Virus record (IMG/VR): IMGVR_UViG_2974594660_000001
Coordinates: 1 to 64,000 of that record
Length of the DNA: 64,000 nucleotides
Source of the DNA: a virus
Lineage: Duplodnaviria; Heunggongvirae; Uroviricota; Caudoviricetes
Reading direction: 5' to 3' (one strand)
Made by a program: the position numbers and the translations under genes. The notes beneath the pieces were generated by a model that saw nothing but the letters and a program-made list of their open reading frames with translations, did not search any database and had not been told where the DNA came from. Of the stretch, positions 13,478-43,207 are shown one piece after another (the first letter of the stretch is position 1; every line of letters starts with the position of its first letter).

Positions 13478-15052
13478 TTAAATAGTACGTCGCCAGTTTA
13501 GATATTCTTGTAGAACATCCGGATCTCGGAAGAACCAACCAGGCTCAAACGTAGACTCTAATGAGTTCATAACAGTCTGGATTTTATTTACCCAAGAGAA
13601 AGTAGGCAATAATGGCTTACTATCAGGTAGTCGATACTCGGTTCTGGTAGAAAGGACGTTACGTGTATGATCCCAACCAGCTGTGTGATAGGAGCCACGT
13701 GTCATGTTATAAACTCTATCCCCTTGGACTGATGTTTCTTCTGGGATTAAAGTTGTAATAGTTCTGCGTCGAATTTTACTACGAGACAGAATATCATTAC
13801 ATAACTTATAACCAATGCTAAGGTCTTTCGAGAAATCTGGACACTTCTTAGGTAAACCTTTACGGATTACTTTCTCAATAGGTGTACTATTAAGCATTTC
13901 TAAGAACTCTTCGTCAGTCCCCTCAAAACCCTTAGCAACCTCTTTAAGAGATAAGAATCTATTTACCAGTCGAATAAGACGACCTTTACGCCATTTGGCT
14001 TCAGAGATACGGAATTCAATTGAACCAAAAGAAGACATTGGACAAAGGTTCATTGCTGTATACTTATTCCAGTTAACAACAATGTGTGATAAGAAGTTTT
14101 CTTTATTCCAATTATCAGATAAGATATCAATATATTCCTGAGCAAAACCTAAAGCCACACAGAAGTTATTACGATATCGGTGGAAACCAGAGCAACGGAA
14201 TAAAGGACGTTCATAGAATAAATAAGCCAGAATCATCTTCTTGACTTCTTCTTCTGTCATATCACGTACATCGACATGAACATGAGTTGAACAACGCCAT
14301 GTTTCATCTGGTGTGTTATTGAAAAGGAATGAATCGATTTCAATAGCAGCGTTATATAAATCTCGACCTCCCCAAGGAGATGAGCAAACATATTCGATAC
14401 CACCATTACGGAGTGAACCATCTTCTTTCGAAGACCAATACTGGAATCGTGGATGAGAAACTTCACCTAGGTTTTCTAGTTCAATTTCTACACCCGCTAA
14501 ATTAGTACCTACAATCAAAGGATGACTTTCAATTGTTGGATAACTAGCTCTCATTCCAAAAGTGCTAGCAACTGTTGGCATTGTTATAACCTCTGTGTTT
14601 CCTGAAATTGGTTGATTTGGAATTGTTCTTCTTGCTCTTGGTATATTAAAACCAAAAAGACCACTTTGATAATGTTCTGATCTGAATGAATCAGGTTCTT
14701 CATTCTCTTGATCTTCAGGTGTCCCATACCACTCATCAACAATAGCCTCATCTTGTGATGATTCTTCTACTGGAACCTCAATATCGATAGAGTCTTCAAT
14801 AACCTGAGAACTCACATCCTCAACAGATCGTGTTGTCATTCTGCTGACCAACTCATCCCAGTTTATAGGACTTGGAGAAGCATAAATCATAGATGAAATA
14901 TCATGATCAGTTGTTCTCTGATTACTGGAGGTTGGTTCAGGGTGAGGTTCAGTTCTTCTTTGGGTATAAGAAGGGGCAGTGCTCCTGTTTGTCATTGCCC
15001 GTGTTGATGAGTTATTATTAGACCACCTTATTCCTCGATAACTACCTGGCAT
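13478..15052 (-). CDS. GCS2/YbdK-like carboxylate-amine ligase domain with a long acidic, Ser/Thr-rich N-terminal extension
   Basis: GVEIELENL and CSTHVHVDV resemble the GIELE and HVHVG motifs of gamma-glutamyl-cysteine-ligase-2 family amidoligases. The N-terminal 200 aa is low-complexity. Confidence 0.5.
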   Translation of the reverse strand: MPGSYRGIRWSNNNSSTRAMTNRSTAPSYTQRRTEPHPEPTSSNQRTTDHDISSMIYASPSPINWDELVSRMTTRSVEDVSSQVIEDSIDIEVPVEESSQDEAIVDEWYGTPEDQENEEPDSFRSEHYQSGLFGFNIPRARRTIPNQPISGNTEVITMPTVASTFGMRASYPTIESHPLIVGTNLAGVEIELENLGEVSHPRFQYWSSKEDGSLRNGGIEYVCSSPWGGRDLYNAAIEIDSFLFNNTPDETWRCSTHVHVDVRDMTEEEVKKMILAYLFYERPLFRCSGFHRYRNNFCVALGFAQEYIDILSDNWNKENFLSHIVVNWNKYTAMNLCPMSSFGSIEFRISEAKWRKGRLIRLVNRFLSLKEVAKGFEGTDEEFLEMLNSTPIEKVIRKGLPKKCPDFSKDLSIGYKLCNDILSRSKIRRRTITTLIPEETSVQGDRVYNMTRGSYHTAGWDHTRNVLSTRTEYRLPDSKPLLPTFSWVNKIQTVMNSLESTFEPGWFFRDPDVLQEYLNWRRTI

Positions 15053-15627
15053 TCTGGAAATCCTTCATTTAAATAAGGGATAAGATATCTTGCTTCGCTG
15101 AAGATTGTGATGGTTTCACCATCTTTTGTTCCAATCTTAGCACCTTTATAATCGATATCACCATTATCACGTTTAAAGAATACCTCATTGACGATTCTCT
15201 CATCTGTCTGAGGTTGATAAAAAGCATACATAAATCGATGACTAAAAGTAGGATAACCTCTTAGTTTACGATCATTGATACCTTTCTTGGTTGAACGGCA
15301 TGATGAATAAGTAATCCAATATGGCGTGTTATTATAAACCGTGTAATGTGAATCAGGTGGATCAAGAACAAGGTTTTCCGAAGTCATCGGGACTTGTGTA
15401 GAATGTTGTCGCCCATCAGATGTTATACGATATCCAGTGAACACTAAAGCATTTTCTGCTTCAACACTGAATTCCATATCACGTCGTTCAGATCTTGACA
15501 TGTTGTCAAAATCAAGAATGGAATCATCATTGTAGACACTTTCAACATAAAAGGGGACTAGCCCCTCATCTGTTTTTAGTCCAACGTATGTTCCACTATA
15601 ATACATATTGAAATCATCGGCTAACAT
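15028..15627 (-). CDS. hypothetical protein
   Basis: 199 aa ORF inside the amidoligase cluster. Confidence 0.4.
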   Translation of the reverse strand: MLADDFNMYYSGTYVGLKTDEGLVPFYVESVYNDDSILDFDNMSRSERRDMEFSVEAENALVFTGYRITSDGRQHSTQVPMTSENLVLDPPDSHYTVYNNTPYWITYSSCRSTKKGINDRKLRGYPTFSHRFMYAFYQPQTDERIVNEVFFKRDNGDIDYKGAKIGTKDGETITIFSEARYLIPYLNEGFPECQVVIEE

Positions 15628-15630
15628 GTT

Positions 15631-16437
15631 TTACATTACCTTTAATAATTTAATCAATGCTTCTGCTGAACGTTTATCATTTTCATTAATGACACGCTGG
15701 ATTTCTTTTGGGTCAACCTTTGCCACTAGCTCTTTAAATGAGCCCTCTTTAAGGGCACCAAAAGCTTTATGAGATTGATCCCAAGCCCATTTTCGATTCT
15801 CTTCTTTAGCAATCCAGAAGTTCGACAATGTGCGGTATTCGATACCATATGTTTTATAGCGACATGCACCAGCTTTACCATATAGTTCACGACGACGATC
15901 ATCGTTATCTAATAACAAGGATGGTACACCTAAGAAGAAGTCACACATAACACCCAGAATGCTCTGATTCATTTGTGTTACATCTAATTCACCCTCAAAA
16001 CCAATGTGGATATGCCCACCAGCTGTACGAAGACCTGGATCAGCTGCTTTAGGTTTTGGGTTTCGTGTACCAGTTAAGGCATTATAATCTGGCTCACAAC
16101 CAAAGATAAATGCGCTTTTATGGAAACTAGTCAGTTCTGCTTGAGAGAAGATATGAGAACTCACGCCCTCGGCAATTGACATGCCAATTTTATTTGCTTC
16201 CGTGTAACAAGCAGAAATGCCACGAGCCATGTTATCATTGAAACCAGCCCATGTTTCATGTGGGTTGATATCATATTCAATTAGCACGTTATCTTCCTGA
16301 ATACGCACATCTTCAGACAAATGCTTTTTCTCTTCTTTACTGGCACCAAGTCGTCCAGCGAAAGATCCGATTAAACCTGTTTTAATATCAAAACCTAGTA
16401 ACTCTGGATCAGAACCGATAGTTAATTTAAAGCTCAT
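15631..16437 (-). CDS. putative amidoligase (carboxylate-amine ligase-like)
   Basis: IGSDPELLGFD and GGHIHIGFEGE resemble amidoligase and GCS2-type motifs. It is co-clustered with ATP-grasp and GAT-II genes. Confidence 0.45.
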   Translation of the reverse strand: MSFKLTIGSDPELLGFDIKTGLIGSFAGRLGASKEEKKHLSEDVRIQEDNVLIEYDINPHETWAGFNDNMARGISACYTEANKIGMSIAEGVSSHIFSQAELTSFHKSAFIFGCEPDYNALTGTRNPKPKAADPGLRTAGGHIHIGFEGELDVTQMNQSILGVMCDFFLGVPSLLLDNDDRRRELYGKAGACRYKTYGIEYRTLSNFWIAKEENRKWAWDQSHKAFGALKEGSFKELVAKVDPKEIQRVINENDKRSAEALIKLLKVM

Positions 16438-19710: not shown

Positions 19711-20004
19711 TTAACCCATCTTTATGTGGACAAAAATGGTCAACAGAGTACTTATTACTAATCCTGATATGGAGATCATTAACTCTGCTTCCCACAGTTT
19801 GCTACCAATTATTTCTCTCCACTTATATTCAGGTAACATTATTAGTGCTAATAGTGCGAACATCAATGTTGAAAATAAATACATAAATATTAAAAGATTA
19901 TCCCATCTATTTTTAATAGTATCTATGATATATGGAAAACATGTTAATATTAATAAGAATTCTGCTATTGGTATGAAAAGGATCGGTCTTTTAAATATAG
20001 ACAT
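19711..20004 (-). CDS. small multi-pass membrane protein (holin-like candidate)
   Basis: Three hydrophobic segments in 97 aa, adjacent to the hydrolase. Confidence 0.4.
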   Translation of the reverse strand: MSIFKRPILFIPIAEFLLILTCFPYIIDTIKNRWDNLLIFMYLFSTLMFALLALIMLPEYKWREIIGSKLWEAELMISISGLVISTLLTIFVHIKMG

Positions 20005-20375
20005 TAATATCTCCTAAGAATTACATCCACATTATACTTATCTTTAAATGAATCTTTGGCAGAGTACATATAATCAACAGCCGAAGAGTTATGTGAGTGT
20101 ATATAAATTGTTTTCAGATTATTAAGATTGTTAGAATATAAAAGGGCTTCAATTATCAGGAAAGCATCTTTCCCTTCAAAATCTTTTATACCTAAATCAT
20201 TATCTAAGGAGACTTCTTTTATTTCTTTCATGTGATTGTTGATACATTTCATGAAAGTGTCTCGATCATGTGCCCAGTATGTCTTGCCCGTAGATATTAC
20301 ATACTCAGGCGGTTTTCTATTATCATCAAGCCAAAGAAACATAAAAACCTCCAGTAAATTTAAGATAAGGTACAC
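20004..20375 (-). CDS. hypothetical protein
   Basis: 123 aa ORF. Confidence 0.35.
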   Translation of the reverse strand: MYLILNLLEVFMFLWLDDNRKPPEYVISTGKTYWAHDRDTFMKCINNHMKEIKEVSLDNDLGIKDFEGKDAFLIIEALLYSNNLNNLKTIYIHSHNSSAVDYMYSAKDSFKDKYNVDVILRRY

Positions 20376-20398
20376 ACTAGGTATACCTTAGGTTTAAA

Positions 20399-20614
20399 TC
20401 AACTGATAATTTTATACTTAGTGTTTCTTGTTTTAAGTATTAAATCACCATCTTCATCAGTCATTAAAGATTCAACTCTTGATGTAAGAACAGGGGTTCC
20501 ATCTTTGAATGGATGATTCCCGTGTGTTGATGTATCATTCTTAATTAATCCAGACACAACCCTTTCTTCAATAAAGAATGCTTCAATTTTTAATTCAGCA
20601 TTATACTTACTCAT
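20399..20614 (-). CDS. hypothetical small protein
   Basis: 71 aa ORF. Confidence 0.3.
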   Translation of the reverse strand: MSKYNAELKIEAFFIEERVVSGLIKNDTSTHGNHPFKDGTPVLTSRVESLMTDEDGDLILKTRNTKYKIIS

Positions 20615-20624
20615 AAGTACCTAC

Positions 20625-21563
20625 TTAGTTTTTACTTCGCATATCCATGATCATTTGACCATCATAGGTTGCACCAACAACTGTTTGTGGTACATCACCT
20701 TTATATGCCTTAGCACGTAACATATCAACATCTAATTGCTTCCATTTAAGCATCTCAGGTGTGATTGTTTGTTGTAAAGCTTTATTGGCTTCAGCCTCTT
20801 TCTGTGCTGCATATAACCGAGCATCTGCATCACGCTCATTAGCTTGGGCTTCATTATTACGAGCTTCACGTTCAGCTTCTGCCTGCTTAACTTTCTGTTG
20901 TGCAACGGCTTCTGCCTTTTTAAGGTTTGCAAGTTCGGCATTGACTTGTTCTTCACGAACCTTAGTATTAGTTACCTGTGTCATAATCACTTCGGGAAGT
21001 GTGATATCTTGCAGAAATACCTGCTTAACAGTGTAACCGTAAGGACGTGCATATTCCTCTACTTCCTGCTGGATTGCAATCTGCAACTCATTCTGAATTT
21101 TGGAATCAAACAAATCCTGTGCTTTAGGAACAGATTTACCGAATTCTCGGATTGTACTTAACAGCTTCTCTGTTACATAACGATCAAGCGCTTGGTCTTG
21201 ATTACCAGCATTGACTTTGTTTACAGGGGCTTTGTTACCATCAAACTGTAGCATTACAGTAATATCAACAGTAGATTTAAACTTATCTTGGGATGGGACT
21301 TGAAGTGCTTCAAACTTCATTGCAATATCTTTTGTACTAAAAGTATCATAGCTTGCAATTGGATTAACAAAATGAAAACCTGGGGTAATAATGTTTGGAT
21401 TGACCTTACCCAAGAATGTTTGAGTAACGACAGACCCATCTTGAACGACAATGTAAGAATTAAGACCAACGATAAGAATACCTAATCCAATGGCTAATTG
21501 AGTTAGGTATTTCTTTGGCTTTTCCATAACTTTTTCAATAAAATTCATATTTTCTTTTTTCAA
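20625..21563 (-). CDS. SPFH/band-7 (prohibitin/HflK-like) membrane protein
   Basis: N-terminal TM anchor, SPFH-like core (VVTQTFLGKVNPNIITPGFHFVNP...VDITVMLQFDG) and a C-terminal Ala/Glu/Gln-rich coiled coil. Confidence 0.6.
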   Translation of the reverse strand: MKKENMNFIEKVMEKPKKYLTQLAIGLGILIVGLNSYIVVQDGSVVTQTFLGKVNPNIITPGFHFVNPIASYDTFSTKDIAMKFEALQVPSQDKFKSTVDITVMLQFDGNKAPVNKVNAGNQDQALDRYVTEKLLSTIREFGKSVPKAQDLFDSKIQNELQIAIQQEVEEYARPYGYTVKQVFLQDITLPEVIMTQVTNTKVREEQVNAELANLKKAEAVAQQKVKQAEAEREARNNEAQANERDADARLYAAQKEAEANKALQQTITPEMLKWKQLDVDMLRAKAYKGDVPQTVVGATYDGQMIMDMRSKN

Positions 21564-21606
21564 AATTAAACCTTACTTTTAAGGGGAGGTAACTCCCCAT
21601 TGTTTT

Positions 21607-22851
21607 TTAGGAGAAGATTACATCAATCAGATCAATTTCTTTGGCTTGATCTAATCGTGCATATAAAGGCTGTCCAAACAATTCTAAATGAACTTCAATT
21701 GTATCCTTTTTAACTGATACAAAAGCTGGATCATCACTTCCAACATGGAAGGATAAAGAAAAGTGTTCCTTTTCATTTCCTTCATAATCCTTGTATCGAC
21801 GGTAATCCATTCCATTGTTTCTTACACATGGGATATCATCTAAATGATTTTCGATATCTGAATAAACCTTATAAGACTCTTCCCCATCTTTCAGTTCAAA
21901 AAACTCAGGATGGTTTTGTTTTGCAATTTTCAGGAGTGCTTCATTGTCAAAAGCAATATAGATTTGTTGTTTTCCTTTAGATACAACATGTGGAATCAGG
22001 TTATACTCACGATCATAACCTTTGACATTAATTCCACCAAGCGTTAGCTCTGTCATTTTATATTTCTTTTCAACACTGTCTAGTCGAATAGACAAACCCA
22101 TCATTTTAACAGAGTCAACAAAAGGTCGATCTGGGAAACGATTAACTTCTGCTGTTAGGTTTTGCAGAATATCAAAGTTCATGTTTGAGTTTTCAGACAT
22201 GATTTTAAAGTATTCAGCTTTTGTTTTATCATCCAATTTATCATTTAGATAATCTTGGATAATATCCCAACCTAAGTGGTCATATTTAAATGTATAGTGG
22301 ATACGATTAGGGCGATCAATCATATATTCACTTACACTTTTAACATTCGCTGATAATAAGAACACATTACCAGTGTTAATGCCACCATCCATGATTGTTA
22401 GTAAATCATTTTGCTGATCTTTATGTTGGTATTTCTTTTCAAATTCATCGATAAAGAATACCAAAGGTCGTCCAGCTAATTCAATCATGCTTGTGATTGT
22501 TGCTGCATCATAAGGTGCATCAAAGTGAATAACTGGGAACCCCATTTTACTTGCTAATTCATTATTTAAAATGTTTAGCATCATAGTTTTACCAGAGCCT
22601 TTCTCTCCAACAGCCAATACACCTGTGTTGTTTTGTGGAGAACGATCATGGATTGTTTTCATAACATCCATAACTTTAGCCGATGGATCACCGTAAATCT
22701 TGCTAGGAACACTTGGCTCAGACACCTTTTTAAAATAAGGAGGTGTTGTCATTGTCGCTGGAGAGTATGTGTAATGACCGCCCTCTAGTACTTCAAAACG
22801 TTTATCTGCATTCGAAGCTCTTGATACGATTCCATCTTTTTCTTGTAACAT
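21607..22851 (-). CDS. P-loop NTPase of unknown function
   Basis: Walker A GEKGSGKTMM and Walker B-like VFFIDEFE. Confidence 0.5.
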   Translation of the reverse strand: MLQEKDGIVSRASNADKRFEVLEGGHYTYSPATMTTPPYFKKVSEPSVPSKIYGDPSAKVMDVMKTIHDRSPQNNTGVLAVGEKGSGKTMMLNILNNELASKMGFPVIHFDAPYDAATITSMIELAGRPLVFFIDEFEKKYQHKDQQNDLLTIMDGGINTGNVFLLSANVKSVSEYMIDRPNRIHYTFKYDHLGWDIIQDYLNDKLDDKTKAEYFKIMSENSNMNFDILQNLTAEVNRFPDRPFVDSVKMMGLSIRLDSVEKKYKMTELTLGGINVKGYDREYNLIPHVVSKGKQQIYIAFDNEALLKIAKQNHPEFFELKDGEESYKVYSDIENHLDDIPCVRNNGMDYRRYKDYEGNEKEHFSLSFHVGSDDPAFVSVKKDTIEVHLELFGQPLYARLDQAKEIDLIDVIFS

Positions 22852-22855
22852 TTTG

Positions 22856-23983
22856 TTATCCTTTTACATTAACAACAGGTTTAATATAGTGTAAAACTTC
22901 TACAAGATCTTCTTGAAGTCTCATAACATCAAAAATATCTTTGTAGGCAAAAGGTGATTCATCTATCGTTGATTCACCAACAGTAGCACCTGGGATATCT
23001 TTCATAGACTCTTTAAAGGATTCTAGTGTTACCTCTTTCTTAGCCTTAGAACGACTCATAACACGACCAGCACCATGAGAGGAGCTGTTCATGCTTTCTG
23101 GATTACCTTTACCACGAACAATGAAACAACCATCACGCATATTTCCAGGAATAACTCCCATCATTCCTTCATCAGCATGTGTTGCTCCTTTTCGGTGAAT
23201 CCATAAATTATCTTTGAATTCAGCATGGTTATGGTTCCTATTAATAATAGAATTACCATCCATAGTGAACCCATTAACAGAGCATACACGCTGTGCAATA
23301 TATTCACGATTCGCCAGTGCAAACTGAAGACCATATTCTAAATCTAGGATATAATCTCTGCCCTCTTCAGAAGTCTCTAATAGATGGCATGCACTTTCAG
23401 CTTTCCCATCATCTCCAGAAGCCATTTTCATATAGAGAGATGCAATTCCATGACCAATAGAACGACTACCAGAGTGGATAGTCAACCAAACTTGATCTTC
23501 TTCATCATATCCAATTTCAATGAAATGATTTCCTCCACCAAGAGTTCCAATACAATTTGGAGCATGACCAAGGATATCATTAATTCTGCTGGAGTGCTTA
23601 GGTAGTAATTTTTGAGATAACCACTTACTTGCTTCTTGAAGATTTTCATTTTTAGAGAAACCTACAGGAACCACTGAAAATATTTTATCTCTGATAGTTT
23701 CAGCATTATTAATTAATTCTTCTTTTGTTACACCAAGAAGTTTTACAGAGAACATACCACATCCAATATCGTATCCAACAAATGATGGGTATATTGTCCC
23801 AGCTGTTGAGACAACTGCACCAATTGGAAGTACATATCCAGAGTGGGCGTCAGGCATTAATGCACCTTGGACTACATCAGGAAGTGACATAACATTAACA
23901 AATTGATCTATTGCACCTGATTCTAAATACTCTGCATAAATTTTATAAGGTTTATTTAATTCTTCTAGTTTTTTAAGTTTCAT
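22856..23983 (-). CDS. rtcB: RtcB-family RNA 3'-phosphate ligase
   Basis: MPDAHSGYVLPIG, GGGNHFIEIG, HSGSRSIGH and NHNHAEF match the conserved RtcB metal-binding and active-site motifs. Confidence 0.8.
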   Translation of the reverse strand: MKLKKLEELNKPYKIYAEYLESGAIDQFVNVMSLPDVVQGALMPDAHSGYVLPIGAVVSTAGTIYPSFVGYDIGCGMFSVKLLGVTKEELINNAETIRDKIFSVVPVGFSKNENLQEASKWLSQKLLPKHSSRINDILGHAPNCIGTLGGGNHFIEIGYDEEDQVWLTIHSGSRSIGHGIASLYMKMASGDDGKAESACHLLETSEEGRDYILDLEYGLQFALANREYIAQRVCSVNGFTMDGNSIINRNHNHAEFKDNLWIHRKGATHADEGMMGVIPGNMRDGCFIVRGKGNPESMNSSSHGAGRVMSRSKAKKEVTLESFKESMKDIPGATVGESTIDESPFAYKDIFDVMRLQEDLVEVLHYIKPVVNVKG

Positions 23984-24195
23984 TATAAATCTTTTATGAT
24001 TAGTTCTGAAGATTTCAGTTCTACACGATCTTCTGGGTGAAAATAAGCAGGTTTCATATCTGTAATTGATATAGCATTTATTGTATGGTTTATAGTAATT
24101 TTCAAATAAACTTTATCTTTGAATAGGAAGACATCACCATATCTTAATACAGTGAATTCTTTTAATTGTTTATCTTTGTCAAATTTAATTTTCAT
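23983..24195 (-). CDS. hypothetical small protein, tandem paralog
   Basis: Shares the FGDxFxFKxxxYLKI...MFHP pattern with ORF 24192..24425. Confidence 0.35.
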   Translation of the reverse strand: MKIKFDKDKQLKEFTVLRYGDVFLFKDKVYLKITINHTINAISITDMKPAYFHPEDRVELKSSELIIKDL

Positions 24196-24425
24196 CTTAT
24201 CACCAGTACTGTTGTCTTCACTTTTTCTACATGTGTATTCGTTGGGTGGAACATTGCTAATCTATTTTCAGATAAGTTAACTGAATTGATATTATCTTCT
24301 ACAACGTCCTTTATTTTTAAATAAATATTACCTTTAAACTGAAAAGTATCACCAAAATTTAAATCACAAAACTTTACAAACTTCCGACCTTTCTCAGTTA
24401 TTTCAATATTCATTTTAGACCTCAT
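24192..24425 (-). CDS. hypothetical small protein, tandem paralog
   Basis: See 23983..24195. Confidence 0.35.
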   Translation of the reverse strand: MRSKMNIEITEKGRKFVKFCDLNFGDTFQFKGNIYLKIKDVVEDNINSVNLSENRLAMFHPTNTHVEKVKTTVLVIR

Positions 24426-24699
24426 AAAAAGAGTTTGAGATTATAATTTCAACAGATTCTAATCTTTGGAAATAATCATGGCTCCAGAAGTTTGCTACTG
24501 GTTGAACCGAGCCATCATCTAATTCAACATCAATAGTACTATCCCTATGGCTTGAATTAACAACAGCGTCAAAAGCTTTCTTAGCTTTACTGAAATCTGA
24601 CCACACATAAGGTAGTGTATCATAGTCTTTATATGTGTTGAAAGAGTTTCCATCTTCGTAACACACTTTTACTTCAAACTTTGGTATTATGTCACTCAT
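24415..24699 (-). CDS. hypothetical protein
   Basis: 94 aa ORF. Confidence 0.35.
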   Translation of the reverse strand: MSDIIPKFEVKVCYEDGNSFNTYKDYDTLPYVWSDFSKAKKAFDAVVNSSHRDSTIDVELDDGSVQPVANFWSHDYFQRLESVEIIISNSFYEV

Positions 24700-24967
24700 A
24701 GCATTTTAACTCAACAATATTATCTTTATTAACCCATCCACCAACAATTTTTAAGTTCATATTATTGTGTGCATACCTGTATGTAGTTTTGTAAGAGGTT
24801 TCTCTCATTTTATCAAACTTTACATACACATATTTTGGTTTTCCTGTGTATGGAAGATCATAAACAACAAACTGTCCATCACAATTAACACTTCTAGAAT
24901 TATCTAGGTTTGGAAAAGAGTTGCAACCACAAAGAACCATTGTCAATACTAATAGTAGTTTCTTCAT
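24692..24967 (-). CDS. putative lipoprotein
   Basis: MKKLLLVLTMVLCGCNS is a signal peptidase II lipobox. Confidence 0.45.
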   Translation of the reverse strand: MKKLLLVLTMVLCGCNSFPNLDNSRSVNCDGQFVVYDLPYTGKPKYVYVKFDKMRETSYKTTYRYAHNNMNLKIVGGWVNKDNIVELKCYE

Positions 24968-25093
24968 AATAACTCACTTTGTTTGTGGAGAATGGTGGAT
25001 TCCAACCACCCACCCCACCTTGGGTAGCGAACTATCGGATGTTTGATAGACATACGCCCAAGGTAGAGTTGCCGCATGCATCCCCATAGAATT

Positions 25094-25168
25094 GGCACCC
25101 TGTACAGGATTCGAACCTGTGACCTACGATTTAGAAGATCGTTGCTCTCTCCACTGAGCTAACAAGGT
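25094..25168 (-). tRNA. tRNA-Arg (anticodon TCT)
   Basis: Cloverleaf read off the minus strand: acceptor ACCTTGT/ACAGGGT, T-arm ACAGGTTCGAATCCTGT, anticodon loop CTTCTAA, and encoded CCA. Confidence 0.75.
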
Positions 25169-25175
25169 TAATTGG

Positions 25176-25249
25176 TGGCCCTTGCTGGACTTGAACCAGC
25201 GACCAATCAGTTATGAGCTGATCGCTCTAACCATCTGAGCTAAAGGGCC
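25176..25249 (-). tRNA. tRNA-Met or tRNA-Ile2 (anticodon CAT)
   Basis: GGCCCTTTAGCTCAGATGG... with anticodon loop CTCATAA, T-arm TGGTTCAAGTCCAGC, and encoded CCA. Confidence 0.75.
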
Positions 25250-25255
25250 ATTTTA

Positions 25256-25486
25256 TTAACAGGATTCATCACAAGGTGCATCACCGCATGTTTCACAAAC
25301 TACTTTTGAATAGAAACACCCCTCTACTGAATCCCCGTCTAAAGTATCTACACCACAATCAGGGCAAACACCATTAGGTTTACTTCCATCACTTAAAAGG
25401 TTCCAACCATCACAACAAGCCATACTATATACCTTATGAAAAATAAACAACACACTTACAATATGGACATTTCTTTTCCATAACAT
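25256..25486 (-). CDS. small Cys-rich protein
   Basis: 76 aa with ten Cys, including CPDCG and CETCG pairs. Confidence 0.35.
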   Translation of the reverse strand: MLWKRNVHIVSVLFIFHKVYSMACCDGWNLLSDGSKPNGVCPDCGVDTLDGDSVEGCFYSKVVCETCGDAPCDESC

Positions 25487-25558
25487 CTTTGTGTCTTTTG
25501 TTCCTTGTTAATTCAATTTTATTGATATCATAAACTTTCAAGCATCTATAACATAGTT

Positions 25559-26089
25559 TCATAATAACCAGCCATATCTATCATCTGGTGATTTATTATA
25601 ATCCCGTTTCAAAATATCCACAGACTCATCATCAATAGAATATGTTTTATTTTTACCATTTATAAAACATATCTGAATAAGCTTCTGTATTTCTGAATAA
25701 TTAATAACTATGCCATATTCATTCTCGATGTGTACAGAGTCGCCTAATAATAAATCTTTGAAGCTTTTTACTTTAGAATATAGACTTATATAATCTGAAC
25801 ATACATCTGACTCTAAATGCTCTGGTATATTTATTTTTAGTCCATCTTCATTTTTATTAATGGAGTTATTAATATAGTGAAACATTTCTAGTGTTGCACC
25901 ATTTTTAATTGATTTTGAAGTCAATTCTTCTGGTGAAACATAATCTAAAACACCATCAATTTTACTTTCTACGAGAAGACAATGTGCAATATCTGATTCA
26001 TTATGTTCAAATATTAACTTCTGTAACAATTCAACGTTTCTCATTGAGATCTCCTTTTTCTTCACACTCATCAGATAATATTGTACCAC
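25559..26089 (-). CDS. hypothetical protein
   Basis: 176 aa ORF. Confidence 0.4.
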   Translation of the reverse strand: MVQYYLMSVKKKEISMRNVELLQKLIFEHNESDIAHCLLVESKIDGVLDYVSPEELTSKSIKNGATLEMFHYINNSINKNEDGLKINIPEHLESDVCSDYISLYSKVKSFKDLLLGDSVHIENEYGIVINYSEIQKLIQICFINGKNKTYSIDDESVDILKRDYNKSPDDRYGWLL

Positions 26090-26261
26090 CAGAAATTACA
26101 ATTAAAACAAATGCTAAGAAACCCCAAATAATACCACCTATTGGGTATACCAAATATAGTTGCTCTCCTCTAAAACCAATATCATACCTTAGTTTTACAA
26201 AGAATGTGCAAATAATAATTGTTAATATCATAGATAAGATAATCCATGTTCTTTTTTTCAT
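26031..26261 (-). CDS. small membrane protein
   Basis: Two hydrophobic helices in 76 aa. Confidence 0.3.
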   Translation of the reverse strand: MKKRTWIILSMILTIIICTFFVKLRYDIGFRGEQLYLVYPIGGIIWGFLAFVLIVISGGTILSDECEEKGDLNEKR

Positions 26262-26276
26262 ATTATACCTTTTATC

Positions 26277-26348
26277 GCTCCGTGTAGGAATCGAACCTAC
26301 AACTATCTCTTAGGAGGAGATTATTATATCCATTTAACTAACAGAGCA
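26277..26348 (-). tRNA. tRNA-Arg (anticodon CCT), no encoded CCA
   Basis: GCTCTGT acceptor, anticodon arm ATCTC-CTCCTAA-GAGAT, T-arm GTAGGTTCGATTCCTAC. Confidence 0.6.
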
Positions 26349-26352
26349 TCGA

Positions 26353-26568
26353 TTATTTTTTAAAAAATGGATGTGCAACTGCAATAGTCCAACCAATCGT
26401 CACAGTAGTCATAACTATATAAAACAATGTTGCCTCATTGTCACCAATTTGAGTATAACGACCTAAGTTATATGACTGAACCGCTGTGATTAAAACAGCT
26501 ACAAATGTTTTAAACATAATTAACTCCAGTAAAAAGGTAGCACCTAAGTGCCACCTATCACTTATCAA
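26353..26568 (-). CDS. small membrane protein
   Basis: 71 aa with two TM helices. Confidence 0.3.
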   Translation of the reverse strand: MISDRWHLGATFLLELIMFKTFVAVLITAVQSYNLGRYTQIGDNEATLFYIVMTTVTIGWTIAVAHPFFKK

Positions 26569-27221
26569 TAATTACGGAGAACTGTTCGGGTTAAGTCGGT
26601 TAATGTTTTATCAGTAGTATTTTCACCAATAACAGTAACTTCCCAACCAGAACCAGTTCGATCAAGTCGAGCAAGAATAGCGCATTCTTTTCCTGCGAAC
26701 TTCTTGTCATTTTCCATGTTAAACTCAGCAATCTTCATACCTTTTCCGTCTTTAACAAGACCATCATAGATGTTAATTCCAATATATGGAATCTCATCAA
26801 ACTTCTGATGTGAGTATGAATTCAGAACTGCATACATATGCTTAACATTACTTGGAACTTTCAGACCTTTGATAGTGATGATTTCATTATCCATTCCATC
26901 ATCTTCATCATCGCCTGAACGATCATCGCCAGTGTGAGTTACAGAGCCACACGAGGAACGTAACTTGCCAAAGTAAACAATGTCAACTTTCTTTTTATCA
27001 CCATCAGCTAAGATTAATGATAAGTCCAAATCAACATCTTCTAAGATAGCTTTCTCTGCACCAACAAAAGATAAAGCTTTACCTAATAAACCAGAAGCTT
27101 TTGATGTTCCAGCACGATTGATTTTACCCCAGTTAACACCAAAGGAGATATCAATAACTGGTGTACCTTTCTCGTTTAAAAGGCGAGTTGTTTCATTTTT
27201 ATTTAATACTAAAGTTGACAT
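26565..27221 (-). CDS. TerD-domain protein
   Basis: GVNWGK, DLDLSLIL and GDDRSGDDEDDGMDNEIITI resemble TerD calcium-binding motifs. Confidence 0.6.
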   Translation of the reverse strand: MSTLVLNKNETTRLLNEKGTPVIDISFGVNWGKINRAGTSKASGLLGKALSFVGAEKAILEDVDLDLSLILADGDKKKVDIVYFGKLRSSCGSVTHTGDDRSGDDEDDGMDNEIITIKGLKVPSNVKHMYAVLNSYSHQKFDEIPYIGINIYDGLVKDGKGMKIAEFNMENDKKFAGKECAILARLDRTGSGWEVTVIGENTTDKTLTDLTRTVLRNY

Positions 27222-27230
27222 TATTTATCC

Positions 27231-28880
27231 TTAAATATAGAGCTTTAAATTATTTTTAATACGAGATTCAATCTCAGACCAATCAGTTGTTGTTACTTCA
27301 CCATCCTTAAAAATGGTTAACAGTGAAGTGTTCTCTTCTTCTTCAACTGTTGCTTTGTCCTTGAATTTCAGGACTCCATCTTCATAGTAATGGTAAATGA
27401 GACCAGTTAATGATTTCTTACCAGGATCAGTAATTGGATCTTTCATTACTTCACGTGCTTCACCATTAACAACACCGTATGTTGCTTTGATTGCAAAACC
27501 AAAGGTATCACGGGTAATGTACTGATATGTGAATGCACCTACACCAAATACTACCGCAGACGATGCATATCCTTTATCATGTAAACGTTCCATGATTTCA
27601 TTAGCACGCTGTTTAGTGATTGAATCACCATAAAGAACGCCAACATGTGGATCAAGAACTTTGAAACCTTTTGAGTTTACAGAGTGACCAAAGATTTCAT
27701 CAAGTAACTGAACAACACCCTTCATTTCTGGAGTTAGTTTATCAATTTGAGACCATTTGAAATCAAATCCAACATCTTTATCTTCTAAATAAGATGCAAT
27801 ATATTTCTTCCCATTGATGGTTTCAATAATGAAATCGGTAATTTCTCGATCATAACGCTGACATAAAATATCATGAACATCATCAACAGTGTGATAATCA
27901 AGTTTTGTAACGTTACAGCAAATAACTGGCAAACCGCAAAGAATATCAGCTGGATCACCTGAATCAGGACGTGTTACCACTTTACCATCTCTGGAAAGAA
28001 TGACATCTTTTAACTCACGTAAGATATTATCAACATGGTTCCATGTATCCCAAGTATCATTTACGATTGATACAATACCTGTTGGCGTTGTTTCTGTGAT
28101 AAGACGACGAACAGTATCAAGTTCACCATCTTTCATCCCCATGCACATTACAGAGTGTTCTGTTGCATCTACCGAACCACCACGTTCTGTTTTGTAAACG
28201 TGCTCAAACATCTCACGACCAAAAACAGAATCAGTACCTTGGAACACAGATAAATGAGCCATGCCAGCAATTGCTGATGCATAGATACCATAGTCACCAC
28301 GACTACTGAAATCATGACCTTGCCAATCAACATGTGAGTTATCATCACAATTTCGAATTGCCCATTGTTCACAGAGTAATCGGAAATGGAATGCTGTTGT
28401 TGCAGAAGTGATGATAGGCCACATCTCTGCACTGATTAAGGTTTCAAGATAATTAACAAGCCAGAAGAAATCTGGATGAGTATTCTTGATGGTTAACATT
28501 GGTGTTCCAACATCAACAACCTCACCCTCTGGAACAACTTTAATTTCCAGTGGCAGATACCCAAGTTTATGAAGCGCCTTAATTCGACTTATATCGTAAT
28601 CTTTACCTAAGTAACGATCAACAGAACGTTTCATTTCTTCGCAGATGCTTTCATCTTTTTGGAAGAATTCAGAATCAAATTCTTCTTTAATCCAATTAAC
28701 AACAAAAGCTTGGAAGCCAAAGCTGAGGATTTTTGGATCATCAGTTACTTGTCTTTCTGAAAAACGTCTTGCATTACGTGGAACAAAGTTGCCATAAATA
28801 AGGCTTGTACCCTCTGGGTATTGATTTGCATGGGCTAGTTTATAACCATCAATTGCAAAAATAGGAGAAAGTCTTTTCAT
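27231..28880 (-). CDS. nadV: nicotinamide phosphoribosyltransferase (NAMPT/NadV)
   Basis: 549 aa. N-terminal AIDGYKLAHANQYPEGT and the overall length and motif pattern are typical of NAMPT-family type II PRTases. Confidence 0.8.
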   Translation of the reverse strand: MKRLSPIFAIDGYKLAHANQYPEGTSLIYGNFVPRNARRFSERQVTDDPKILSFGFQAFVVNWIKEEFDSEFFQKDESICEEMKRSVDRYLGKDYDISRIKALHKLGYLPLEIKVVPEGEVVDVGTPMLTIKNTHPDFFWLVNYLETLISAEMWPIITSATTAFHFRLLCEQWAIRNCDDNSHVDWQGHDFSSRGDYGIYASAIAGMAHLSVFQGTDSVFGREMFEHVYKTERGGSVDATEHSVMCMGMKDGELDTVRRLITETTPTGIVSIVNDTWDTWNHVDNILRELKDVILSRDGKVVTRPDSGDPADILCGLPVICCNVTKLDYHTVDDVHDILCQRYDREITDFIIETINGKKYIASYLEDKDVGFDFKWSQIDKLTPEMKGVVQLLDEIFGHSVNSKGFKVLDPHVGVLYGDSITKQRANEIMERLHDKGYASSAVVFGVGAFTYQYITRDTFGFAIKATYGVVNGEAREVMKDPITDPGKKSLTGLIYHYYEDGVLKFKDKATVEEEENTSLLTIFKDGEVTTTDWSEIESRIKNNLKLYI

Positions 28881-29672: not shown

Positions 29673-30473
29673 CTACTTACTCCAATCATAAACAGCATGA
29701 ACATGATCAATAACACCATCAAAAACTTCTTTACCTTTTGAAAAGATACCGTTTGTAACAAACAGTGATATTGACTCAGGATTACCTTTTTCTCTTAAAG
29801 CTTTGGCGACTTCAATAAAGGTTCGACCGCCATCACAGATATCATCAACAATGATTAAATTAGCGTCACAGTAGTCAAGAGAAGTATTAACCTCTACGCC
29901 TGTAATCTCACCAGTTGATGTATCACGAATCTTGCTTGCATGTATTACAGGCTTATTATAGATTTTTGATAACTCATGAATCTTTTTATCAGCCCCTGCA
30001 TCGGGTGATACAAAAATTGTTTTACCTTTAAACATCTCGCCGATTGGAAGAGCGTGTCTGTGTTGCATAAATACTTGAGATTGCGTAATTACACTGGATT
30101 TATTAATAAGTGCAGGGGCAACATCAGAGTGTGGATCAATTAGTATAACTTCATCTGCATTCATTGAGTTCACAATGTTTGCAAACACTTTTAAAGAGAA
30201 ACACTCTTTCTTAGATGTTACTCGATCTTGTCTGGCAAATGGCAAGTATTCAAAGATAATTCTTAGGCTACCATTTCTAACCTGCATTCGACTGACAACA
30301 TCATGAATTAATAGCATATCAATTACTTCATCAGAGGATCGCAAGGAGCAAATGATTTCTACATCAATTACAGATACAGGAGGTGTAGATAAGAGTTTAG
30401 CGTGACGTTCACCACCATTGAATGAGAATAAATCAAACTCTTGAGGTATACCATTCATTGTTACATGAATCAT
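29673..30473 (-). CDS. prs: ribose-phosphate pyrophosphokinase (PRPP synthetase)-like
   Basis: PRPP-binding loop LIIVDDICDGGRTF. It lies beside NAMPT, whose substrate is PRPP. Confidence 0.7.
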   Translation of the reverse strand: MIHVTMNGIPQEFDLFSFNGGERHAKLLSTPPVSVIDVEIICSLRSSDEVIDMLLIHDVVSRMQVRNGSLRIIFEYLPFARQDRVTSKKECFSLKVFANIVNSMNADEVILIDPHSDVAPALINKSSVITQSQVFMQHRHALPIGEMFKGKTIFVSPDAGADKKIHELSKIYNKPVIHASKIRDTSTGEITGVEVNTSLDYCDANLIIVDDICDGGRTFIEVAKALREKGNPESISLFVTNGIFSKGKEVFDGVIDHVHAVYDWSK

Positions 30474-31111: not shown

Positions 31112-31678
31112 TTATCGACCAATTTTTGTGCAATTTGGCATATCTTTTAATCCAATCTTAACCTCTGGGATTAAATCAACTGCCAGTTTTAAGAAGCTTA
31201 CTGGTACTCTATCACATGATGGTCGATCTCTGTTTATCTTAACCAATTCATCAAACTGTTTTTCAAATAGTTTGTAGCAGAACTGCATACCATAGTAATC
31301 AGCTAGAATTTTCCACTCACTGATCGTTTTGAGGTTAAAGTTAGTATTACAGATAATGATTTCTTTTATCTGTTTTTGTTTGGACAAGGAGATGACTTGT
31401 GCTTCCATCATACTCTTCATAAGAGCTAATGTTTCTTTGTCATTTAATTTGGAAAAGAATTCTTTCTTATCCATATCACCAAACAAAGTAGTACGCAAAT
31501 TATCTAAACTAACAACTGCAACTTTTCCAATGTTATCTTTACAACGCTTATTAGTCCAAGTTGTTTTACCTGCACCAGCAGATCCAATTGTTAAAATAAG
31601 TTTAATCATTTTTAATATCCCAATAACAGTAAACTGCACTGCCAATAATACATACAGATAAGAATAAGACATGACCAA
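31112..31678 (-). CDS. P-loop kinase (AAA_33/polynucleotide-kinase-like or nucleotide kinase)
   Basis: Walker A GSAGAGKTTW near the N-terminus. Confidence 0.45.
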   Translation of the reverse strand: MVMSYSYLYVLLAVQFTVIGILKMIKLILTIGSAGAGKTTWTNKRCKDNIGKVAVVSLDNLRTTLFGDMDKKEFFSKLNDKETLALMKSMMEAQVISLSKQKQIKEIIICNTNFNLKTISEWKILADYYGMQFCYKLFEKQFDELVKINRDRPSCDRVPVSFLKLAVDLIPEVKIGLKDMPNCTKIGR

Positions 31679-43133: not shown

Positions 43134-43207
43134 AGGGGATTAGTATATTGGTATTATAATTGCCTCCAAAGCTAGAGAAGAGGGTTCGATTCCTTCATCC
43201 CCTGCCA
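43134..43207 (+). tRNA. tRNA-like gene (possibly tRNA-Trp, anticodon CCA) with an imperfect anticodon stem
   Basis: Acceptor AGGGGAT/ATCCCCT plus discriminator G and encoded CCA. T-arm GAGGGTTCGATTCCTTC. Candidate anticodon loop CTCCAAA; the anticodon stem has two mismatches. Confidence 0.5.

Follow-up and report, generated by a model that had tools for sequence, protein, structure and literature searches.

Gene rtcB (gp030) of a Caudoviricetes virus encodes a compact RNA ligase of the RtcB family that, with a probability of roughly 60%, acts as an accessory RNA-repair enzyme, resealing RNAs of the translation apparatus, most likely transfer RNAs (tRNAs), as a counter-defence. The gene was analyzed within 64,000 nucleotides of IMG/VR record IMGVR_UViG_2974594660_000001 (positions 1 to 64,000; hereafter the window), centering on the segment 21607–26348, which carries it together with three tRNA genes. 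A counter-defence role is suggested by the phage-specific spread of the RtcB clade of gp030, by the adjacency of that clade to tRNA genes, by the dispensability of rtcB in related phages, and by the surrounding anti-defence and RNA-end genes. What the analysis shows directly is the gene with its catalytic residues and fold, which tRNAs are encoded, and the statistics on codons and gene neighborhoods. We infer the chemistry of gp030 from its family membership, and infer likewise its activity, its substrates and its role in counter-defence. A megablast search with the segment returned a 100% match with identical coordinates to Cronobacter phage vB_CsaP_009 (LC519601.1 / NC_048664.1; 92,122 bp; Grimontviridae, Privateervirus), and window coordinates are those of the NC_048664.1 record. 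Five Proteus phages of the same genus matched the segment at 91–94%. Its principal features are as follows.

22856..23983 (−): rtcB (gp030), short-form RtcB 3'-phosphate/5'-OH RNA ligase of 375 amino acids (aa), by Pfam, PHROG, motifs and fold
25093..25168 (−): tRNA-Arg(UCU), argU-like, AGA decoder, CCA encoded (ARAGORN; Rfam 69.6 bits)
25173..25249 (−): tRNA-Ile2(CAU), ileY/ileX-like, AUA decoder after lysidine modification (ARAGORN; Rfam 71.2 bits)
26276..26347 (−) by Rfam, 26275-26348 by ARAGORN: tRNA-Arg(CCU), argW-like, AGG decoder, CCA not encoded (Rfam 60.5 bits)

Profile, residues and fold agree that gp030 is a member of the RtcB family. The protein matched Pfam PF01139 over the whole profile (1–426 of 426; E 3.7e-85, 287.1 bits against a cut-off of 27) and PHROG 1075, 'tRNA splicing ligase', with an E-value of 1e-113. 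In a HMMER alignment to the RtcB structures of T. thermophilus and P. horikoshii, motifs MPDAHSGY, GYDIGCG, GGGNHF, HSGSRSIGH, NHNHA and SSSHGAGR aligned with the known metal-binding and guanosine monophosphate (GMP)-accepting motifs, and D72/C75, N152/H153, H170, H251 and H303 aligned to Asp95/Cys98, Asn202/His203, His234, His329 and His404 of P. horikoshii RtcB. All seven residues were invariant in 24 homologues of the clade, 52–66% identical to gp030. H303, within SSSHGAGR, is the predicted GMP acceptor, and D72, C75, H153, H170 and H251 are the predicted metal ligands. The AlphaFold (AF2) model of gp030 reached a pLDDT of 94.9 and a pTM of 0.92; all 16 of its matches in the PDB at E<=1e-3 were RtcB proteins, with a TMq of 0.82 to 4dwq_A, an RtcB complex with GMP and Mn2+. 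Sequence and model thus depict an active-looking, catalytically intact compact RtcB. An earlier note, made from the letters alone, had described a compact RtcB with all hallmark motifs and had named the metal-binding histidines as the feature to verify by careful alignment; the full-length profile match, the catalytic residues and the fold confirm the description, and H153, H170 and H251 are aligned and invariant.

The chemistry of cellular RtcB (P. horikoshii, T. thermophilus, human RTCB and the E. coli RtcBA/RtcR system), with which gp030 has in common the fold (TMq 0.8) and the metal-binding and GMP-accepting residues, is presumably also that of gp030: sealing of 3'-phosphate or 2',3'-cyclic phosphate to 5'-OH ends, dependent on guanosine triphosphate (GTP) and Mn2+. 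The phage protein is shorter, 375 aa versus 481–505 aa in the solved cellular structures. An E. coli-type Rtc operon (rtcBA plus rtcR) is not what surrounds it, since neither RtcA nor RtcR lies nearby: no RtcA, RtcR or archease was detected in about 20 open reading frames (ORFs) scanned from 13.5 to 31.6 kb, and no RtcA cyclase or sigma54/CARF RtcR is annotated over 13.5–85.6 kb of the record.

The minus strand carries every gene from about 13.5 to 41 kb, which places the tRNA genes transcriptionally upstream of rtcB rather than downstream, at a distance of 1.1–2.3 kb. The earlier note had set rtcB immediately upstream of the tRNAs; the three tRNA genes and their common orientation stand, but the order is the reverse and 1,109 bp with five small annotated ORFs (gp031–gp035) separate tRNA-Arg(UCU) from rtcB. 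Four of these ORFs abut one another, as found in the ORF list:

23983..24967 (−): gp031–gp034 (70, 77, 94 and 91 aa), between the tRNAs and rtcB

None of the four had a Pfam or NCBIfam match, or a PDB match at E<=10, and their homologues elsewhere are annotated as hypothetical. One of them, gp033 (94 aa, 24415-24699, minus strand), is labelled 'RNA ligase 1' in RefSeq/GenBank and was rejected as a second ligase; with no Pfam, NCBIfam or PDB similarity and only hypothetical homologues, the label is probably a misannotation. In the sequence TAATG the stop codon of gp031 and the start codon of rtcB overlap, and the start of gp029 lies 4 nt past the rtcB stop codon. A terminator scan of the block found no convincing minus-strand terminator between the tRNAs and rtcB; a promoter scan was uninformative, returning fewer promoter-like sites than in shuffles. 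This tight packing on one strand, with its TAATG and 4-nt junctions, is counted in favor of an RNA-repair role. In RefSeq NC_048664.1 the product of 22856-23983 is "tRNA splicing ligase" and that of the next ORF is "ATPase". The same table contains no tRNA features here and annotates small hypothetical coding sequences around the tRNA genes; the records of sister phages do annotate these tRNAs.

Gene rtcB is an accessory gene of Privateervirus and belongs to a long run of accessory genes that share one orientation. The matching loci of Salmonella phage SE131 and of L101, a viral contig that is the nearest relative outside the genus, lack rtcB, which is therefore dispensable in the lineage, as is typical of host-range or counter-defence cargo. 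Its clade is widespread in phages: RtcB was matched by tblastn in at least 708 phage records, and a protein search returned thousands of short RtcBs of about 365–400 aa, mostly on phage-like contigs. The closest relatives (60–66% identity) were also on phage-like contigs, with accessory regions of varying content (Acb1, NUDIX, Macro, Metallophos, Rnl2-like ligase). The 80 best cellular loci, at most 55% identical, belonged to Desulfuromonadales-type bacteria, Campylobacterota and DPANN archaea; none was enterobacterial, and a recent capture of rtcB from the host is therefore not supported.

The clade lies beside phage tRNA genes at a frequency above that expected by chance. Density of tRNA genes near viral rtcB was 0.39 per kb within 1 kb, versus 0.05–0.16 per kb at 3–10 kb. 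Among 69 de-duplicated viral loci of the clade, 32 carried a tRNA gene, and in 17 of these 32 one lay within 500 bp of rtcB, whereas random placement gave 7.3 ± 1.9 such loci and never more than 13 over 2000 trials. Within 1.5 kb, a tRNA gene was found in 25/80 viral loci versus 7/80 of the cellular loci. So strong a local linkage could also mean that RtcB serves the phage's own tRNAs, either by re-joining them after cleavage by a phage or host processing nuclease or by maintaining one particular phage tRNA, with no general counter-defence role. The same idea would fit the occurrence of tRNA-Pro(UGG) as the only tRNA, within 1.3 kb of rtcB, in 8 of 15 single-tRNA loci. However, the tRNAs of the window are uninterrupted and standard (Rfam 60–71 bits), and half of the viral loci lack a tRNA gene within 10 kb of rtcB; service to the phage's own tRNAs is the least probable of the explanations considered here.

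The window tRNAs themselves are orthologues of E. coli K-12 argU, argW and ileY, as judged by alignment to the K-12 genes. The CAU tRNA has an acceptor stem and T arm identical to those of K-12 ileY and of a prophage tRNA-Ile, and a D arm with one base more than ileY; these ileY-like traits identify it as the AUA-reading tRNA-Ile2. The earlier note had left it as tRNA-Met/Ile(CAT), of which the CAT anticodon holds and the Met option falls. The tRNA-Arg(CCU) has an unusual D arm and a short variable loop in common with K-12 argW. Anticodon loops CTTCTAA, CTCCTAA and CTCATAA were identical to those of K-12 argU, argW and ileY, with differences confined to the stems, the comparison being with E. 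coli K-12 rather than with the natural host. Anticodon-loop variants have been proposed as the signature of nuclease-evading phage tRNAs (eLife 2023, PMC10264068). Since the loops are identical to K-12, this signature is absent here and nothing suggests that the phage tRNAs resist a nuclease.

Codon supply is the most economical explanation of the three tRNAs. The window has a guanine-plus-cytosine (GC) content of 35.6%, and in its 68 long ORFs AGA and AGG account for 36% and 13% of Arg codons (together 49%) and ATA for 20% of Ile codons. Relative to a 50-kb E. coli K-12 sample processed alike, with E. coli standing in for Cronobacter, AGA was over-used 4.7-fold (rank 1), ATA 3.4-fold (rank 2) and AGG 2.3-fold (rank 10). 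The three phage tRNAs thus read codons that the phage over-uses, as codon-compensating tRNAs do. Similar tRNAs also occur apart from RtcB: a lambdoid E. coli prophage carries an Ile/Arg/Arg cluster downstream of Q, and L101 has kept tRNA-Arg(CCU) upstream of its ATPase gene, both without RtcB. Together with the over-use of AGA, AUA and AGG, this favors codon supply. Such lambdoid (Stx-type) rare-codon clusters resemble the window in having a tRNA-Arg(UCU) and a tRNA-Ile(CAU) whose acceptor stem and T arm are the same, and fit codon supply likewise; they differ in having no RtcB nearby and in that the second Arg tRNA has the anticodon TCG, not CCT. The proposal in the earlier note that the Arg tRNAs replace cleaved host species is accordingly not supported, given argU/argW orthologues with identical loops and a good fit to codon supply. 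Rfam scans at gathering and E-value thresholds found only tRNAs, with no Y RNA, tRNA-like or other extra non-coding RNA. A fourth tRNA gene lies elsewhere in the window:

43134-43207 (+): tRNA-Trp (ARAGORN, Rfam)

Because the codon statistics explain the tRNA set fully, and because the lambdoid prophage cluster and the L101 tRNA-Arg(CCU) come without RtcB, rtcB and the tRNAs might be unrelated neighbors. RtcB would then repair other RNAs, either 16S ribosomal RNA (rRNA) cut near its 3' end, as with cellular RtcB2–PrfH or RtcB after MazF, or phage or host messenger RNAs. The best NCBIfam models for gp030 were short RtcB types of similar length, among them TIGR03073 release_rtcB, the PrfH-coupled rRNA-repair type, and ribosome repair by RtcB2 is documented (PMC9304027). 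Against this, TIGR03073 aligned over the full length of gp030 with 141.8 bits only, versus a curated cut-off of 271.8, and no PrfH-like or other release-factor-like gene was found among the neighbors scanned or annotated. With small ORFs and an AAA ATPase as its neighbors, gp030 was rejected as a member of the PrfH-coupled RtcB2 group. Adjacency of the clade to tRNA genes in excess of chance is also at odds with unrelated neighbors, and we regard this explanation as unlikely.

The genes on the far side of rtcB encode an AAA+ ATPase and an SPFH/Band-7 protein.

21607..22851 (−): AAA+ ATPase (gp029), 414 aa (Pfam AAA E 5e-07; PHROG 2376)
20625..21563 (−): SPFH/Band-7 protein (gp028) with an N-terminal hydrophobic segment (Pfam Band_7 E 6.7e-16; PHROG 200)

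The earlier note had correctly seen a P-loop NTPase beside rtcB, which is gp029, 4 nt downstream. That the NTPase is part of the system is not supported. The AF2 model of gp029 (pLDDT 86) had as its best folds Bcs1, FtsH, Mpa/PAN/Rpt, Msp1 and Cdc48, all of them protein unfoldases of the classical type. Homologues of gp029 occur in 370 phage records, and the ATPase is present without RtcB in SE131, in Aeromonas phage LAh_9 and in viral contigs L006–L012, L101 and L102; RtcB was found within 10 kb of the ATPase in 0/8 non-Privateer ATPase loci. In the RtcB-less relatives SE131, LAh_9 and L102, the ATPase is accompanied by an SPFH/Band-7 gene, adjoining it in SE131 and no more than about 3 kb away in the other two (3 kb upstream in L102); in L101 the ATPase is followed by the endolysin gene. 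Five large viral contigs have the ATPase directly upstream of a PRPS-like and Nampt-like pair. The ATPase was therefore rejected as a general RtcB partner and is probably a backbone gene beside which rtcB lies, and we propose that it forms with the SPFH protein a separate, protein-directed module. A residual signal of a looser RtcB–ATPase link comes from the distant viral contigs L052 and L097, where an ATPase homologue (33% identical) lies directly downstream of rtcB (RtcB 46–53% identical).

A pairing of a classical-clade AAA+ ATPase with a membrane-anchored SPFH/Band-7 protein was seen in the window (20625-22851, minus strand) and in L002 (5965-8179) and L003 (4929-9828), the two genes traveling together in several groups of phages. 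The pairing recalls FtsH with HflK/C. In LAh_9 a tRNA-Cys(GCA) gene and a gene for a DUF2828 protein lie between the ATPase and SPFH genes, and in SE131 a tRNA-Cys(GCA) gene lies 2.3 kb upstream.

These two genes, together with the cREC gene gp026 described below, could be assembled differently, into a membrane-tethered complex of RtcB, AAA+ ATPase, SPFH/Band-7 protein and cREC, with the neighboring tRNA as RNA cofactor or scaffold. Such a complex would be a phage version of the RtcB–Band-7–b7a-tRNA system, a prediction of Burroughs and Aravind 2016 as quoted in bioRxiv 10.1101/312249. In its favor, a single stretch of 6.3 kb (20004-26347) holds every component in the same orientation, L052 and L097 repeat the order of rtcB followed by the ATPase gene, and an RtcB/Band-7/tRNA-like association is what that quotation describes. 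Compared with the system as quoted there, the likeness ends with RtcB, Band-7/SPFH and tRNA genes in a single co-oriented block: the Band-7 gene is two genes away from rtcB and accompanies the ATPase in RtcB-less relatives, and the RNAs are genuine argU/argW/ileY orthologues, separated from the Band-7 gene by at least about 3.5 kb, with no extra tRNA-like RNA. A Pfam census of 131 ORFs flanking rtcB in 79 viral loci counted Metallophos 3 times, AAA 2 times and Band_7 once, so that the association is not conserved in the clade, and no homologue of gp026, gp028 or gp029 was found near the 80 best cellular RtcB loci. These points, added to the unfoldase-like fold of the ATPase, its company with SPFH in SE131, LAh_9 and L102 and the 0/8 non-Privateer loci with RtcB, make a dedicated complex very unlikely, and membership of the gp030 locus in the RtcB–Band-7–b7a-tRNA system, to the extent that the quoted account defines it, leans negative.

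Genes around this core add an RNA-end and anti-defence context.

20004..20375 (−): cREC domain protein (gp026), annotated as hypothetical (Pfam PF20274 cREC_REC E 1.4e-14; PHROG 1479)
27231-28880 (−): Nampt-like gene (gp042) (NCBIfam PRK09198, 495 bits; Pfam)
29673-30473 (−): PRPS-like gene (gp046) (ribP_PPkin 103 bits, below the cut-off of 113)
31112..31609 (−): gp049, 165 aa, kinase-only homologue of the N-terminal domain of T4 polynucleotide kinase (phmmer; Pfam AAA_33; PHROG 505)

By its domain, gp026 is a predicted cyclic-phosphate-processing enzyme and a possible accessory to RNA-end repair; both this prediction and operonic links of cREC to phage RNA ligases have been published (PMC7824862, PMC9503650). 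It co-occurs with RtcB in Proteus phage Privateer, and tblastn found no cREC in the SE131 and L101 loci, both of which lack RtcB. The gp042 and gp046 genes, which matched PHROG 448 and 619, are probably the Namat/Adps NAD+ reconstitution pair of NARP1, located 3–6 kb upstream of rtcB. This pair and a cREC protein with published RNA-ligase links are counted in favor of the RNA-repair and counter-defence role. By phmmer, gp049 matched T4 polynucleotide kinase (1ly1, 1ltq) with an E-value of about 1e-11 over residues 1–142 versus 1–138. Its annotation as 'polynucleotide 5'-kinase and 3'-phosphatase' was rejected: only the kinase domain is present, with no 3'-phosphatase.

Under the explanation that we favor, repair of translation-apparatus RNAs by gp030, host metal-independent RNases (anticodon nucleases, toxin–antitoxin RNases or HEPN-type effectors) would cut RNAs of the translation machinery during infection, and these RNAs, above all tRNAs, would be the most likely substrates. 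With GTP and Mn2+, His303 would become guanylylated; the 2',3'-cyclic phosphate end would be opened to a 3'-phosphate; transfer of GMP would then yield RNA-3'pp5'G, whose attack by the 5'-OH end would reseal the RNA. The cREC protein may pre-process cyclic-phosphate ends. RtcB would in this way sustain translation, a single-enzyme analogue of the T4 pair Pnkp and Rnl1. The three tRNAs would mainly supply decoding of AGA, AGG and AUA to a phage that is AT-rich while its host is GC-rich; their position by rtcB would fit the habit of the whole clade, and they might themselves be among the RNAs worth repairing.

Several points weigh against this explanation. The phage also encodes the kinase-only homologue gp049, and the product of such a kinase, a 5'-phosphate end, is not an RtcB substrate. 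The anticodon loops, equal to those of K-12, bear no trace of selection by an anticodon nuclease. Because gp030 scores below every curated NCBIfam cut-off, its substrate class cannot be read from the sequence. The census of the 131 flanking ORFs in 79 viral loci revealed no dominant protein partner of the clade. No experimental test of any phage RtcB was found in the searchable literature, and no host RNase defence of Cronobacter or Proteus is known from this work.

A functional counterpart is T4 Pnkp plus Rnl1, which act on PrrC-cleaved tRNA-Lys and have the same predicted purpose as gp030, namely resealing tRNAs with 2',3'-cyclic phosphate and 5'-OH ends. Unlike this pair, RtcB needs no healing of the ends before it joins them. 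The T4 Pnk kinase domain has a homologue in gp049, which lacks the 3'-phosphatase domain of the T4 enzyme, and neither Rnl1 nor Rnl2 was found in the phage, the other ligases annotated over 13.5–85.6 kb being a DNA ligase and a COOH.NH2 ligase. A heal-and-seal system of T4 type was therefore rejected, with only a kinase domain at hand and the label of gp033 unsupported.

The gene annotation, the tRNA arrangement and the idea of tRNA repair are already known: the product name stands in RefSeq, the arrangement has been reported for Privateer (PeerJ 2021, PMC7881722), with an RtcB-like ligase that follows tRNA-Arg(TCT), Met/Ile2(CAT) and Arg(CCT) downstream at about 1 kb and with vB_CsaP_009 named as having the homologue, and Iyer et al. 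2021 (PMC7824862) stated that phage RtcBs ligate cleaved tRNAs, by now an established hypothesis. A tRNA-maintenance idea goes back to Pope et al. 2014, as cited in PMC7881722. The Privateer ligase is 97% identical in protein sequence to gp030, and its neighbors follow one another as they do here (kinase, MazG, PRPS-like, Nampt-like, TerD, three tRNAs, small ORFs, RtcB, ATPase, SPFH, cREC, endolysin); the two loci differ only in the host, here Cronobacter and there Proteus, and by about 9% at the nucleotide level over the segment. The interpretation in the earlier note is thus partly supported: plausible, not original, and in part overtaken by better explanations, namely codon supply for the tRNAs and, for the ATPase, its status as a backbone gene. 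On the question of repair the window adds nothing beyond the annotation and the publications for this phage genus. Proof that a phage RtcB undoes tRNA cleavage would give the T4 Pnkp/Rnl1 pathway its first demonstrated counterpart consisting of one enzyme, and would explain the presence of rtcB in the at least 708 sequenced phages. The practical value of the locus lies in a tractable enterobacterial model: the phage, at about 90 kb, has hosts that can be cultured and close relatives without rtcB.

What novelty remains is the clade-wide linkage of RtcB to tRNA genes, especially to a lone tRNA-Pro(UGG) with A37, which could open a new question. Among 15 viral RtcB loci with a single tRNA gene, tRNA-Pro(UGG) was that gene in 8, at 8–1221 bp from rtcB:

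L064 11104-11180: lone tRNA-Pro(UGG), viral contig
L043 11118-11194: lone tRNA-Pro(UGG), viral contig
L081 1909-1986: lone tRNA-Pro(UGG), viral contig
L067 8100-8177: lone tRNA-Pro(UGG), viral contig
L082 9845-9920: lone tRNA-Pro(UGG), viral contig
L017 9470-9546: lone tRNA-Pro(UGG), viral contig
L079 6480-6557: lone tRNA-Pro(UGG), viral contig
L069 8703-8780: lone tRNA-Pro(UGG), viral contig

Their sequences have diverged yet keep C1-G72 and A73, and most have the anticodon loop TTTGGAA or CTTGGAA, that is, A37 where tRNA-Pro normally has G37. No description of such an RtcB-adjacent lone A37 tRNA-Pro(UGG) was found in the literature. A speculative and quite unlikely proposal is that the short phage RtcB clade and an adjacent tRNA gene, mostly an atypical A37 tRNA-Pro(UGG) and here the Arg/Ile2 tRNAs, constitute a conserved two-part module, in which the tRNA would act as a dedicated substrate, serve as cofactor or scaffold, or be what an as yet undescribed tRNase defence attacks, and that Privateervirus recruited the AAA+, SPFH and cREC proteins into a membrane-associated repair complex. 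By analogy, a cofactor or scaffold role of the tRNA could be compared with the proposals made for YrlA and b7a-tRNA.

The block holds further genes. A TerD-domain protein is encoded at 26565-27221 on the minus strand (Pfam E 9.8e-20), between the tRNA genes and the Nampt-like gene. The matching region of L101 holds a TerC gene and two TerD genes, and a homologue of gp049 sits between the two TerD genes. Downstream of the endolysin gene, 13478-16437 on the minus strand encodes an amidoligase-like protein, gp017, with a weak Pfam match, and a phiEco32-type COOH.NH2 ligase, gp019; L101 has a homologous COOH-NH2_lig gene in the same relative position.

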